DNA of 64,000 bases. Source: Podarcis pityusensis (lineage: Eukaryota). The stretch is from NCBI GenBank assembly GCA_964106645.2, contig OZ067050.1. The stretch is one strand, 5' to 3'. The notes under the pieces are model-generated. The model was not told where the DNA came from. It searched no databases and saw only the letters and a program-made list of their open reading frames with translations. The position numbers and the translations under genes are program-made. This document shows, in pieces, positions 385 to 44,446 of the stretch (positions are counted from its first letter, which is position 1; each line of letters starts with the position of its first letter).

Positions 385-676
385 AGTGGTGGCAAAGTTA
401 TACCAGCACATCCTAGCCTTGGCGTTTGCTGTGAATGAGATCAATGAGAATCCAAAGATCTTGCATAATATCACGCTTGGTTTCCACATCTATGACAGCT
501 ATTACAGCCTGATGATGACCTATCGTACCACTCTGGACCTGCTTTTCAATTTGCGTAGATTTTCCCCCAACTACAGGTGTGACTTGCCAAAAAACCTGAT
601 GGCTGTCATTGGTGGACTTGGCTCAGACATCTCCTTTCACATATCAGACATATTAGGTCTCTACAAGATTCCACAG
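385..676 (+). CDS. V2R exon 2 (Venus flytrap domain, N-terminal part)
   Basis: ttgcag|AGTG acceptor and CCACAG|gtag donor; 292 bp encoding ...LYQHILALAFAVNEINENPKILHNITLGF...LYKIPQ. Confidence 0.9.
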
Positions 677-1490: not shown

Positions 1491-2342
1491 CTGACATATG
1501 GCTCCTTCGCCCCAGGGAAAAGTGATACAATGCAACTATCTTCCTTTTACCGCATGATTCCAAATGAATCTCATCAGTACCTGGGGATTCTCCAATTACT
1601 TCAGCATTTTGGATGGATGTGGGTTGGGCTATTTGCTGTGGATGATGATAGTGGAGAACAGTTCTTGCAGGTGTTGGAACCAATGCTTTCTCAGAATGGC
1701 ATCTGTTCAGCCTTTGCAGAAAGAATTCCAAAGCAAGCATCTTGGCATACAGGAAACCAAATGAACACTATGGCCTTCAATATTAACCAACATTTGACAA
1801 ATAGCACAGCTAATACATTGATTGTCTATGGAGAAACTATGATCATTTCATGGTTAATTCTTATAACAGATCTTGTATATGAAGAAAATATGATGTCTTG
1901 GAGAAAGCTGTGGATCATGACAGCCCAGATCGATGTTGCATTAATAAGCATTCAAGCCCAAGCAAATTTGCAAGCGTTCCAAGGTGCTATTTTGTTCACA
2001 GCACACTCACACGAGCTTCCAAGCTTTAAGGAATTTCTTCAGAATATAAAACTTTGCAGGACACAAGAAAACAGCTTTTTCAAGGACTTCTGTGAGCAAA
2101 TATTTGGCTGCTCATTTCCAAATTCCCAGGATCCGATGGAGGATGGTAGTGAATGTACTGGGGAGGAGAGGCTAGAAAGTCTTCCTGGATCTCAGTTTGA
2201 AATAGCTGTGACTGGCCACAGCTACAGCATCTATAATGCTGTTTATGCTGTGGTGCATTCTTTCCATGCAATGCATTCATCTAGATCCATTCACAGAATA
2301 AAAGGAAAGAAGAGAAGTCTTCAAGATTTTGGGGCTTGGGAG
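1491..2342 (+). CDS. V2R exon 3 (Venus flytrap domain)
   Basis: ttttatag|CTGACATAT acceptor and TGGGAG|gtagc donor; 852 bp open frame LTYGSFAP...FYRMIPNE...HFGWMWVGL...GAWE. Confidence 0.9.
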
Positions 2343-3970: not shown

Positions 3971-4422
3971 CTCCACCCATTTCTTCAAAGTGTTGTGTTT
4001 AATAATACTGCAGAAGAAATTGTGTCCTTTAATGATAAAAGGGAAATGGAAGCTGACCTTGACATAGTGAACCTAGTGATTTCCCCAAATAACTCATTCC
4101 TTAGAAAATATTCTTTCTAGTAGCACCTTAAAGACCAACTAAGTTAGTTCTTGGTATGAGCTTTCGTGTGCATGCACACTTCTTCAGATACACGAAGAAG
4201 TGTGCATGCACACGAAAGCTCATACCAAGAACTAACTTAGTTGGTCTTTAAGGTGCTACTAGAAAGAATATTTTTTATTTTGACTATGGCAGACCAACAC
4301 GGCTACCTATCTGTAACTCATTCCTTAGAGTGAAAATTGGAAAGTTTGAACACAAAGCTCCAATGGAAGATAAACTTGTCATTAATGAAGATATAATTGT
4401 GTGGCATGGAAGCTTTAACCAG
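3971..4422 (+). CDS. V2R exon 4, interrupted by a 224-bp insertion (native parts 3971-4105 and 4330-4422)
   Basis: caactag|CTCCAC acceptor and AACCAG|gtatga donor. Removing 4106-4329 restores a 228-bp frame LHPFLQSVVFNN...PNNSFLR-VKIGKFE...IVWHGSFNQ. Confidence 0.88.
4106..4313. mobile_element. Penelope-like element pseudo-LTR insertion in inverted (hairpin) configuration
   Basis: Perfect 81-bp inverted repeat (4105-4185 / 4194-4274); 16-bp TSD TAACTCATTCCTTAGA (4090-4105 / 4314-4329); hammerhead motif; same 3' end as the copies at 20 and 44 kb. Confidence 0.85.
4154..4191 (-). ncRNA. Minimal type I hammerhead ribozyme motif (Penelope-associated)
   Basis: Minus strand reads GUAU-CUGAAGA-A-GUGUGCAUGCACAC-GAAA-GCUC-AUAC: stem I, catalytic core, palindromic stem II, palindromic AGCU in place of stem III. 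Confidence 0.75.
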
Positions 4423-4577: not shown

Positions 4578-4970
4578 AAAGGTAAAGGTAAAGGGCCCCT
4601 GACAGTTAAGTCCAGTCGCGAACAACTCTGAGGTTGTAGCGCTCATCTCGCTTTACAGGCCAAGGCAACTGGCGTTTGTCCACTCCATAGACAGTTTTTT
4701 CCCAGGTCATGTGGCCAGCATGACTAAGCCACTTCTGGTGCAATGGAACACTGAAACCAGAGCAGTGCATGAAAACGCCGTTTACCTTTCCACAGGAGCC
4801 ATATCTATTTATCTACTTGCACTTTTTGGCATGTTTTTGAACTCCTAGGTTGGCAGGAGCTGGGACTGTGCAACAGGAGCTCACCTTGTTGCGAAGATTC
4901 GAATCTCTGACCTTTTGATCAGCAAGCCCAAGAGGCTCAATGATTTAGACCACAGCGCCGCCCGCATCCC
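4578..4970 (-). mobile_element. Sauria SINE, full length
   Basis: (ACCTTT)n tail; colinear with the 2435 and 9551 copies. Confidence 0.9.
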
Positions 4971-6013
4971 TTCTTAGAAACTAAGGAGAGGTGTAAAAAA
5001 AAAAGAAAGCTTAATATATCAATCTCTGCATGGAAATAGTTGTTTCCTCCAGTCAGAGAATGGGGCATCTGGAAGGTCTGCTGTGACAAGCCAAATACAG
5101 AGATGAGGGAGATGAGGAAAATGCACATACATTGGCATCTGAGAGCATGGTCATGGGTCTACAGGTCTATACCACATCTCTGCAGGCCTCTATTGCCATT
5201 TCCTACACCTGCTCAGTCTACTCCTTTATCCAGTGCAGGATTTCCAGTTACTTTAGGACCACAAGTTGGCCAAGTTGTGCATCCCCCCCCCCAATATACT
5301 GGATGCTAGGATAGGGGTTTAGCGGTAGATGCAGAGAAATGTGTTGATTTGTTTGGAAGGTGCTGGAGAAGTTAATGAGAGAGAAGGGAATAGATGAACA
5401 CCATTTGGCACCTTTGAAGGTGAAGAATGTTTCCAGAAGACAGCTACTCTGGGTTGTGGGCCCATATGCTGGATATGTAACATTCTTAAGATGCAAGTGC
5501 CCAGAGTCATGGGGCACCAGGAACAAGAAGGCCTCTCTACTCACCAGAAGGGAGAGACAAGACTCCAGTTCTATACCATACCCTTTGCCATTGAAAAGAT
5601 ATTTGACCAAAGGTTGAGGTTTTAGGTTATGCACTTCTCATATTAGTAATAAAATGTAGCCCCATTTTAACCCGTTTCATTTGTCTCAACTCTTTATCCC
5701 TGAGCCTAGTCACAATAATTGCCTTGTCTTTGGCAAGACTGTGGATACATATAATAAAACATATTTAAGGGCCAAATCTTGTCTTTCTAGCATCTATAGT
5801 CATGCCTGTTTCTATACAATAATGCACTAAGACAAGTAATTTATCTTCTCTGGAAACATAACTATTGGGCTCAGTAGTATACTATGTAATAATGTTCAAT
5901 ATAATTTGATTTTTCTGAGTCAACAGCTTATTCATTTTGTTGTTAAAAAAAAAAAAAGGTGATTATTTTCCTCTCATTGATTCCATCATATTCCTTGCTT
6001 TGTTTGCTGATAG

Positions 6014-6140
6014 GTGCTGCCTATTTCTTTGTGTTGTGACTCCTGCCACCCTGGTTATCAGAAGAAGAAAAGAGAAGGGGTGAAGTTTTGTTGCTATGAT
6101 TGTGTTCCATGCCCAGATGGAGAGATTTCAAACCAAAAGG
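6014..6140 (+). CDS. V2R exon 5 (cysteine-rich / nine-cysteine domain)
   Basis: gatag|GTGCTG acceptor and AAAAGG|gttagt donor; VLPISLCCDSCHPGYQKKKREGVKFCCYDCVPCPDGEISNQK. Confidence 0.9.
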
Positions 6141-7550: not shown

Positions 7551-8470
7551 ACATGGACAATTGTTTCAGATGCCCAGAAAATCAGCACCCAAGCAAAGGC
7601 CAAGATCGATGCATTCCCAGAGCTGTGAGCTTTCTGTCATATGAAGAACCATTAGGGATTAGTTTAGCTTCACTCTCAGCTATGCTTTCCCTGATCACAG
7701 TTTTGGTGCTAGGAACTTTTATTAAGCACAAAGAGACCCCCATAGTCAAAGCCAACAACCGGGATGTCACCTATACTCTTCTGATCTCTCTCCTGCTTTG
7801 CTTTCTCTGTTCTTTCTTATTTCTCGGAAAACCGAAGAAGGTGACCTGTCTTCTACAACAATCAGCTTTTGGCATCATCTTCACAGTGGCTGTTTCTTCT
7901 GTGTTGGCCAAAACCATCATTGTGGTTTTGGCCTTCAAGGCCACCAAGCCAGGATCCAGCATGAGGAAATGGGTGGGAAAAACAATGACAGGTTCAATTG
8001 TTCTTTCCTGCTCCCTTGTTCAAGGAGTCGTTTGTGCAGTGTGGCTAGGAATCTCTCCCCCCTTTCCAGATGTTGACATGCAGTCACTAGCAGGGAAGAT
8101 CATCATAAAATGTAATGAAGGATATGTCAACATGTTTTACATTGTCATGGGCTATATGGGACTTCTGTCTGTTATAAGCTTCACTGTGGCTTTCCTAGCC
8201 AGGAAGTTGCCAGATAGTTTTAATGAAGCCAAGTTCATCACTTTTAGTATGCTAGTGTTCTGCAGTGTTTGGGTGTCATTTGTACCAACGTACCTGAGCA
8301 CCAAAGGCAAATACATGGTGGCTGTGGAGATCTTCTCTATTTTAGCTTCCAGTGCTGGGTTACTAGGCTGTATCTTCTCTCCCAAATGCTATATTATTTT
8401 GCTGAAGCCTGAGCTGAATCACAGGGAGCAGCTAAGAAATCGAAATAATGGAAGCAACCAAGAACCTTAG
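7551..8470 (+). CDS. V2R exon 6 (7TM domain), intact to the stop codon
   Basis: ccccag|ACATG acceptor, phase matches exon 5; ORF 7553-8470 carries class C 7TM motifs. Confidence 0.93.
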
Positions 8471-18852: not shown

Positions 18853-20113
18853 TGTTCTTCTCTGATGTTTGTTTGGTACCTGTGAACAGAAATATATCAC
18901 ATTACTTCTTTCTTATTCATCTGTAACTATCTTAGTGATGTTCTCTCAACATCTCTCTATCTGTTCTAACAGTGGTAAGCTTCAGCATTCAGTTTATTCA
19001 TGTCTCATTTCTAATCACACCCTGAAGGTTTAATTCTCATGAGTCTTGTACAGCTCAGCAACACTGAATCAGATGTGTATTTTGAGAGTTGTGCAGGTGG
19101 TGAACTTAGATTGTCCGTGATCCAAAGTGCTGTTAGAATTTATATAAAGGACTTGGGCCATAATAGCTAACTGGGTCACCATTCACCTTATGGTGAATGA
19201 AAAGTAGCATTTAAGATTATGGCAACCCCTCTTGAACTTCTGGTCCTGGGTACAATATAATAGTGTGTTGGAATTATTTTATGAACACAGCAAGGAAAGC
19301 TTAATGCAGTTTTATTTCGACAAGAAGCAACAGTCACTGGGGAGTTCACCAGGGTCGATTCCACAGATGTATAAATTACACAGGCTTATATAGAGCCCTT
19401 TCCTTAGCTTTATACACATGGATGTAGAAATTAAGTGACATTCACAGAGGAAAAGCAGGCATTATCAGAGCTGGAAACCTTGTTCAGCAAGAAGAGGATG
19501 GAACTTGTTATCAGGCTAGCTCAAGGCTGAGTTATTCCTGCACAAATATTCTTGACACATTCTTAGCACAATATGAGTAAGCTGATTCTAACAACATTTT
19601 TAATGCAATCTGGGTAATGGGAATCAATGGATTCCCCTTACAACAGTCTTAAAAATACTTGTGTTTTAGTAGGCATACAACAGACTCAACATGGTGTGAC
19701 TCCTGGAGACAGATAACATTAGGCTGGTGCTTGTGGACAGCATCAGCTACCCTTTTACATTTGCTTGGGTCTCCCAACCCTCATACGTTCCATCAAAGTA
19801 TCATCACATTACATTTAGGATTCACCTAAAGGATGAATCGAATGCAGGTCGCCGAATGCAGTATTCCATCCACTATGACCATCAGATTGAATGGGAAGCC
19901 TCATCTATATGGAATTTTCACTTTGTGTAGATACCCCATTACAAGACTGAGTAGTGGTGGTGCCCTAAAGTGCCTCCACGTATATTTTGTAAAACAATGG
20001 TCTTGGGATCCTGGAATTTTAGCACTTTGACTCTTTCTTGAGTAATTCCTATTAATTAAAAATAAAAGAATTCCTTCCAGTAGCACCTTAAAGACCAACT
20101 AAGTTAGTTCTTG

Positions 20114-20151
20114 GTATGAGCTTTCGTGTGCATGCACACTTCTTCAGATAC
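20114..20151 (-). ncRNA. Minimal type I hammerhead ribozyme motif
   Basis: Reverse complement of 20332-20369. Confidence 0.75.
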
Positions 20152-20331
20152 ACTGAAACAGAAGTTGCCAGATCCTTCTATATAGTGAGAAGGTGGGGAG
20201 GGGTATTACTCAGAAGGGTGGTGGGAATGGGTGATTGATATCTGCCAATCACCCATTCCCACCACCCTTCTGAGTAATACCCCTCCCCACCTTCTCACTA
20301 TATAGAAGGATCTGGCAACTTCTGTTTCAGT

Positions 20332-20369
20332 GTATCTGAAGAAGTGTGCATGCACACGAAAGCTCATAC
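20332..20369 (+). ncRNA. Minimal type I hammerhead ribozyme motif
   Basis: GTAT-CTGAAGA-A-GTGTGCATGCACAC-GAAA-GCTC-ATAC; predicted cleavage after C20365. Confidence 0.78.
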
Positions 20370-20584
20370 CAAGAACTAACTTAGTTGGTCTTTAAGGTGC
20401 TACTGGAAGGAATTTTTTTTATTTTTGACTATGGCAGACCAACACGGCTACCTATCTGTAACTCCTCTTAATTAAGTGAAAGGTGAATCTGACAATTATA
20501 TCCTTGGGCTTTACAATGGAACTCATATTTAAGGAAAACAGATGAGGCACATGCCTAAGTTCTTGACATTGATACCAGGAAAAG

Positions 20585-44100: not shown

Positions 44101-44446
44101 ATCAGCCAAGCACCCATTCCCACCACCCTTCTGAGAAATACTCCTCCCCACCCTCCCACTATATATAAGGGTCTGGTGACTTCTGTTTCAGAGTATCTGA
44201 AGAAGTGTGCATGCACACGAAAGCTTATACCCAGAATAACTTAGTTGGTCTCTAAGCTGCTACTGGACAATTTAAAAAAAATAATAATAAATTTTTTTGG
44301 AAGGATTCTTTTAAAGACTGTTTTAGGACGTTTTTTTAAAGAACTTGATTCTTTTAAAGGATTTTTTTGGAATAGTTTTTTTAATAATCTTTTCAAGATT
44401 TATTTATTTATTTCCACCATGGCAGACCAACACGGCTACCTACCTG
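44101..44446 (+). mobile_element. Penelope-like pseudo-LTR, single arm, diverged subfamily
   Basis: Colinear with 20246-20458; AGAAGGTTC duplication (44091-44099 / 44452-44460); empty site in the paralogous unit at ~57421-57445. Confidence 0.85.
44193..44230 (+). ncRNA. Minimal type I hammerhead ribozyme motif
   Basis: GTAT-CTGAAGA-A-GTGTGCATGCACAC-GAAA-GCTT-ATAC; core unchanged although the flanks have diverged. Confidence 0.72.

Follow-up and report, generated by a model that had tools for sequence, protein, structure and literature searches.

A truncated Penelope-like insertion in exon 4 of an otherwise intact lizard V2R gene: a predicted null allele that likely segregates with an empty one

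A truncated copy of a Penelope-like element (PLE; the copy is herein the stub) lies in exon 4 of an otherwise intact V2R gene of Podarcis pityusensis (GCA_964106645.2, contig OZ067050.1), and we consider it quite probable that this is a predicted null allele, likely segregating with an empty one. The stretch of DNA analyzed, 64,000 nucleotides of that contig (herein the window), carries exons 2 through 6 of a class C GPCR on the + strand, and every splice site is GT-AG (Table 1). Exon 1 was located 1.6-1.8 kb upstream of the window; it has a hydrophobic start, and its phase-2 donor fits exon 2. The gene shows the hallmarks of a V2R: six coding exons; flytrap, nine-cysteine, and 7TM domains; and clustering with squamate V2Rs. 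Exon 3 is 96% and 95% identical to the V2R models of Podarcis muralis and P. raffonei, respectively, and neither the 40 kb upstream nor the rest of the window gave a further match to V2R exons 2-6.

Table 1. Features of the V2R gene and of the insertion in its exon 4 (window positions unless a locus is named)
Feature	Position	Strand	Description
V2R exon 1	L051:8209-8423		215 bp, upstream of window; signal-peptide-like start
V2R exon 2	385-676	+	292 bp
V2R exon 3	1491-2342	+	852 bp, phase 0-0; ANF_receptor profile 78-310 of 353
V2R exon 4 with insertion	3971-4422	+	452 bp; 228 bp when empty, 76 aa
Target-site repeat, left copy	4090-4105	+	host codons of N-S-F-L-R motif
Left arm (inverted pLTR copy)	4105-4185	-	81 bp, perfect
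Penelope-like (Neptune-type) stub	4106-4313	+	208 bp; inverted pLTR fragment + direct pLTR fragment + tail
Premature TAG, codon 503	4118-4120	+	302 nt before next exon junction, 429 nt before last
Minimal type I hammerhead motif, intact core	4191-4154	-	antisense to V2R transcript
Right arm (direct pLTR copy)	4194-4274	+	hammerhead without first core bases and stem I 5' strand
One-sided tail	4275-4313	+	39 bp; has ATG (4286) and first codons of parent RT-endonuclease ORF
Target-site repeat, right copy	4314-4329	+	first 5 bases = element's own continuation
V2R exon 5	6014-6140	+	127 bp, cysteine-rich domain
V2R exon 6	7551-8470	+	7TM domain; stop 8468-8470

A preliminary description of this locus had reported exons 2, 3, 5, and 6 as intact, and they are: all four are open and bounded by GT-AG sites. 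It had also named older lesions, for instance in exon 1, as a finding that would mark the gene as already dead; that exon, too, is intact, and the gene is otherwise sound. With the insert removed in silico, the V2R frame runs for 877 aa with no internal stop, and all 25 of the conserved cysteine columns are present in the resulting protein. Private residues number 9 in the window V2R, 12 in the P. muralis ortholog, and 7 in the P. raffonei ortholog. Because the 877-aa frame is open, the cysteines are kept, and private residues are not in excess, the gene apart from the insert is, as far as its coding sequence and splice sites tell, free of any sign of earlier decay. Removal of 4106-4329 leaves an exon 4 of 228 bp, which matches the whole exon 4 of all 19 paralog loci fetched; its 76 aa form the end of the flytrap domain and the linker to the cysteine-rich domain.

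When 59 proteins (58 hand-picked database matches and the window V2R) are placed in a quick tree, the latter clusters with a single ortholog from each of four lacertids (SH-aLRT 100), and this group in turn falls within a clade of 13 rows that also includes Anolis, Elgaria, and five snakes (SH-aLRT 100). Other V2R 7TM exons in the genome number at least 128, with the best at 75% identity to that of the window, and large V2R sets are described in lepidosaurs (PMC10869828). Since there is one ortholog per lacertid, the clade reaches to Anolis, Elgaria, and snakes, and the best paralog is at 75%, these sequence comparisons mark the window V2R as a lone, old lineage within a large family. Disabled vomeronasal receptors are familiar: of the mouse VR genes analyzed, at least one strain carries a truncated form of 18.2% and a frameshifted form of another 14.3% (PMC3460788), and 39 pseudogene contigs are described in a corn snake VNO transcriptome (PMC3590772). 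The strain-polymorphic truncated alleles of mouse share with the present allele a stop or frameshift in a receptor that is intact elsewhere; the cause here is a retroelement, whereas there it is a point change (PMC3460788), and the receptor hit here has no close paralog (best 75%, 7TM exon).

The 452 bp of exon 4 comprise 228 bp of coding sequence, the 208-bp insert, and one extra copy of the 16-bp repeat, much as the preliminary description had it. The repeat copies at 4090-4105 and 4314-4329 are 100% identical; the arms pair over 81 bp without a mismatch around an 8-nt loop; translation entering the insert reads K-Y-S-F-stop, with TAG at 4118-4120; the net frameshift (+224 bp in exon 4) and the intact AG/GT splice sites were likewise borne out. 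The predicted RNA fold of exon 4 is exceptionally stable (z = -21.2; 0 of 100 shuffles equally stable). Since the first 5 bases of the repeat also match the continuation of the element, the duplication proper may be 11-16 bp. The hairpin is real, as had been claimed, but hairpins of this form are already described for Penelope-like insertions, and the genome has many that look like it: a search with the insert returned 617 candidates, and the 40 that were scored all match it over almost the full 208 bp, at 90-100%. An miRNA or a DNA transposon (MITE) was considered and rejected, as the arm sequence is that of the pLTR of an RT element.

The parent family was identified through the tail. A 35-mer from it has 569 exact copies in the genome (reversed control, 0), and at 2 of 25 such loci the tail continues into a long ORF. 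Both ORFs, fetched in full, are 910 aa long (L080:932-3664, +; L081:2062-4794, -), with an RVT_1 match above cut-off (E 2.5e-12) and, at the C-terminus, a GIY-YIG match (E 2e-4) whose 21.9 and 21.6 bits fall just below the Pfam cut-off of 22.6. Arm sequence is present both before and after the ORF at L080, and inverted in the stub. The family therefore combines an RT+GIY-YIG ORF, pseudo-LTRs (pLTRs), a one-end tail, and a short target-site duplication (TSD), the features of an EN+ PLE. Between RT and endonuclease, a C-x4-C-x2-C linker can be made out by eye; a CX2-5CxxC linker marks the Neptune and Nematis clades (PMC8557442), and the label "Neptune-type" thus follows from a motif common to Nematis. 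The tail, 39 bp here, measures 27-42 bp in the first 10 copies measured, and among the 30 best copies the target duplication is 10-17 bp in 29 and 12-14 bp in 23. The stub belongs to a small subfamily (11 exact genome matches of a diagnostic 35-mer), and its right arm and tail are identical over 120 bp to 5 of the 10 other subfamily loci. With its open 910-aa ORFs, the family looks recently active.

An inverted, truncated pLTR together with a one-sided tail of 30-40 bp is described for Penelope-like insertions (PMC8557442; PMC3846280), and the tail is tied to internal start sites of reverse transcription (PMC11167929). The stub resembles EN+ insertions of this kind (PMC8557442; PMC3846280; Anolis Poseidon, PMC11167929) in the inverted truncated pLTR beside a direct one, the 30-40 bp tail at one end, the short TSD, the hammerhead in the pLTR, the position of the tail in the ORF start, and a parent with RT followed by GIY-YIG. 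It differs in that this copy is only 208 bp long and lies within a coding exon; its parent, unlike Poseidon, has the Cys linker motif of Neptune/Nematis; and, in contrast to the in vitro initiation of Poseidon, which proceeded without homology, 5 bases at its junction are also found in the template (PMC11167929). By analogy with these systems (PMC11167929; PMC8557442), we propose that the endonuclease of an element from the family with open 910-aa RT+GIY-YIG copies, whose pLTR and tail make up the stub, would have nicked exon 4; reverse transcription would have started inside the ORF start of the element and ended after ~130 nt; and an inverted second copy would have been added, leaving the target duplication.

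Several observations were made on related sequences. Among 26 hairpins parsed from loci L001-L030, 18 different centers occur, and subfamily changes are found in both arms of a copy. Because the centers vary while both arms carry these changes, the inverted arm is suggested to be made anew from the same template at each insertion. In the same set, the longest duplications (16-17 bp) start with bases matching the continuation of the element, which possibly reflects primer pairing. A second, longer inverted pLTR pair of the family lies at 20059-20458 of the window; its arms extend through another ~90 bp of pLTR, an intact hammerhead core is seen by eye on both strands, and a 13-bp repeat with one mismatch flanks it. 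An older, more diverged direct pLTR copy at 44193-44446 has an expanded A/T-rich stretch preceding the tail. Two copies of a high-copy repeat, which we take to be a Sauria SINE-like candidate, lie in introns 3 (~2445-2820) and 4 (~4580-4975), the latter with very high contig depth. The segment 22001-24000 reaches a G+C of 0.565 against ~0.39 around it and is CpG-island-like.

The empty allele, 224 bp shorter as the preliminary description had anticipated, is found in other lizards. The ortholog models of three lacertids (P. muralis, Lacerta agilis, Zootoca vivipara) have a whole exon 4, and seven public runs, examined as contigs and not as reads, were surveyed for polymorphism: five show the empty site only, one lacks cover, and one shows the empty site together with the right junction of the insert. 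In X1 and X2 (organism A) and X8 (organism C), one contig each joins 4089 to 4314, the empty site; contigs of X7 and X9 (organism C) leave the window sequence at 4314; X11 has no cover on 4330-4400 and is uninformative. In X5 (organism B), a 50-nt record of depth 12 matches 4294-4343 with 0 differences beside a downstream contig of depth 23.9, and an upstream contig of depth 20.3 continues by the empty path, its last letters lying on 4330-4339, where the depth of 56.2 equals 23.9 + 12 + 20.3. With the right junction at half depth beside the empty path, X5 likely holds both alleles as a heterozygote; the record has 20 letters on the element side, below our bridging rule of 31 letters, and comes from one sample. 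The left junction appears in no contig of any run (depth in the X5 bin 4048-4101, 21.1). The suggestion that the allele is segregating thus gains one run with both forms, at the level of contigs, one sample, and the right junction only. A search of the assembly for a second, empty copy of the site gave 0 matches with 2 mismatches allowed, a result that does not prove absence.

Gene models of orthologs were also inspected, and no truncated one occurs among 48 short hits. The P. raffonei model (XP_053215924.1) lacks exactly exon 4 (857-76 = 781 aa), exon 3 being joined to exon 5. Gene predictors omit broken exons that have no RNA support, and this model could reflect an older shared insertion or a skipped isoform. 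Among snakes, the models of Crotalus tigris, Vipera latastei, and Liasis olivaceus miss part or all of exon 4 or exons 4-5, and those of Python and C. adamanteus are whole; the snake absences may be model errors or further losses.

The arms show 0 differences in 216 sites, which bounds their divergence at less than ~1.4%, a bound of the same size as the differences seen in the flanks when the runs are compared with the window. To call the event "very recent", as had been done from the perfect arms, is therefore an overstatement, since they give only this upper bound; on the arm sequences, the insertion is young but not provably very recent. X5 differs from the window by 9 letters and a 3-nt indel upstream and 3 letters downstream, compared with 3-5 letters upstream and 0-1 downstream for X1, X2, and X8. 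Given that the divergence of its contigs from the window exceeds that seen in the empty-site runs, X5 probably comes from an individual other than the one assembled, and the filled allele may be common to lineages about 1% apart. It is accordingly conceivable, though on balance doubtful, that the insertion is older than it appears, common to wall-lizard species by ancestry or hybridization, and drifting as a tolerated null. The greater divergence of the junction-bearing X5, the exon-4-less model of P. raffonei (21 residues from the window protein), and arms that permit up to 1.4% divergence speak for such an age; the collapsed contigs of X5, however, may show the empty haplotype only, the P. 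raffonei lesion may be another one, and the subfamily is small (11 exact matches) and homogeneous. This older insertion would fit the mechanism of our preferred reading, a Penelope-like stub producing a null, and differs from it on age.

As both splice sites of exon 4 are intact, its inclusion is, judged from these sites, the default, and a message that includes it would meet the stop at codon 503. By the 50-nt rule, nonsense-mediated decay is predicted from where this stop lies. The stop-bearing message would accordingly undergo such decay or yield an ectodomain without the membrane domain. The preliminary description correctly gave exon 4 as phase 0-0, and skipping it would keep the frame (801 aa vs. 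877 aa) and delete ANF_receptor profile positions 311-351; a cryptic splice scan, based on a crude consensus count, found no stop-free, frame-restoring route other than skipping of the whole exon. A receptor from the skipped message would lack the end of the flytrap domain and be at best weak.

Over its full length, exon 4 can be aligned with a stretch of 77 CaSR residues. Exon 5 of CaSR has that length, and its exon-5-less form is described as dominant negative in keratinocytes and as partly compensating in knockout mice (PMC5020072). Given the alignment and the equal length, the borders of V2R exon 4 and CaSR exon 5 can be inferred to coincide. The exon-5-less isoform and the exon 5 knockout mouse thus concern the same aligned 76/77-residue in-frame exon of a class C GPCR; in CaSR, bypass of the disrupted exon by skipping is demonstrated, whereas in the V2R skipping of exon 4 is only possible (PMC5020072). 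We regard it as unlikely that the allele is a switch to an exon-4-skipped, CaSR-like receptor of 801 aa, weak or dominant negative on its partners. The 0-0 phase of the exon, its alignment to a CaSR exon 5-sized stretch whose skipped form has functional consequences (PMC5020072), and the 781-aa RefSeq model of P. raffonei with exon 3 joined to exon 5 would agree with a switch; it is opposed by the two intact splice sites that make inclusion the default, by the loss of ANF_receptor positions 311-351, and by the possibility that no real transcript underlies the P. raffonei model. A combined version, in which the insertion persists as a polymorphism common to several wall-lizard species and forces a CaSR-like skipped receptor that damps the intact allele, strikes us as quite improbable.

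It is very improbable that misassembly produced the insert by placing a repeat at a 5-base microhomology: long palindromes do trouble assemblers (PMC8557442), and the left junction is absent from the contigs of all runs examined, but an independent short-read data set contains the right junction without a single letter changed, and the copy has a family-typical duplication and tail.

The insert had further been called ribozyme-bearing, and it does contain a hammerhead motif, in antisense only, with no apparent part in the knockout. The minus-strand motif has the core, helices I and II, an extra base after A9, the G10.1-C11.1 pair, and a palindromic helix III stub; the fold topology fits, and its stability is not above that of shuffles (z -0.14). 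No intact core is present on the V2R sense strand, which is missing the 5' strand of stem I as well as the bases that open the core. The window has 0 Rfam hits at gathering score, and no hammerhead family is among 26 weak hits on 4000-4420; these are mostly miRNA-precursor models, of a kind to fit any long hairpin, and were rejected. In a sample of 30 copies biased toward those most like the stub, intact cores number 14 in element sense and 25 in antisense. The minimal type I hammerheads described for metazoan PLEs (PMC4209133) share the core, the 4-bp helix I and 6-bp helix II, the extra base after A9, the G10.1-C11.1 pair, and the palindromic helix III stub; in contrast to them, the stub has one intact copy, antisense to its host and without a tandem dimer partner. 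A non-LTR retrozyme, for which a tandem array with at least 2 complete hammerhead units is the criterion (bioRxiv 10.64898/2026.07.22.740005), was set aside, as there is a single inverted pair with one intact core. Because the motif is antisense and, in the predicted fold, locked where both arms pair into one hairpin in the V2R transcript, the hammerhead is likely a bystander. That it silences the V2R itself, by cutting the receptor pre-mRNA, is scarcely credible, since the minimal motif, complete as it is, belongs to the other strand, the core start and stem I are missing from the sense copy, the arms pair as one hairpin in the transcript, and minimal PLE motifs are described as not cleaving as monomers (PMC4209133) or as needing the protein of the element for activity (PMC11167929).

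A literature search, with subscription journals and supplements outside its scope, found no report of this V2R allele. Nothing is overturned by it: receptor nulls are common, and the insertion type is already described. The stub does indicate that the Penelope-like family still hits coding exons. If the allele is segregating, its 224-bp length difference would serve as an inexpensive marker of a natural knockout in a V2R that has no close paralog; were the polymorphic skipped-receptor version true, it would offer a series of natural, PCR-typable knockouts in a chemoreceptor conserved among squamates. Podarcis is a genus used in chemical-communication work, and, given segregation, insert homozygotes could help to assign a ligand to this V2R.
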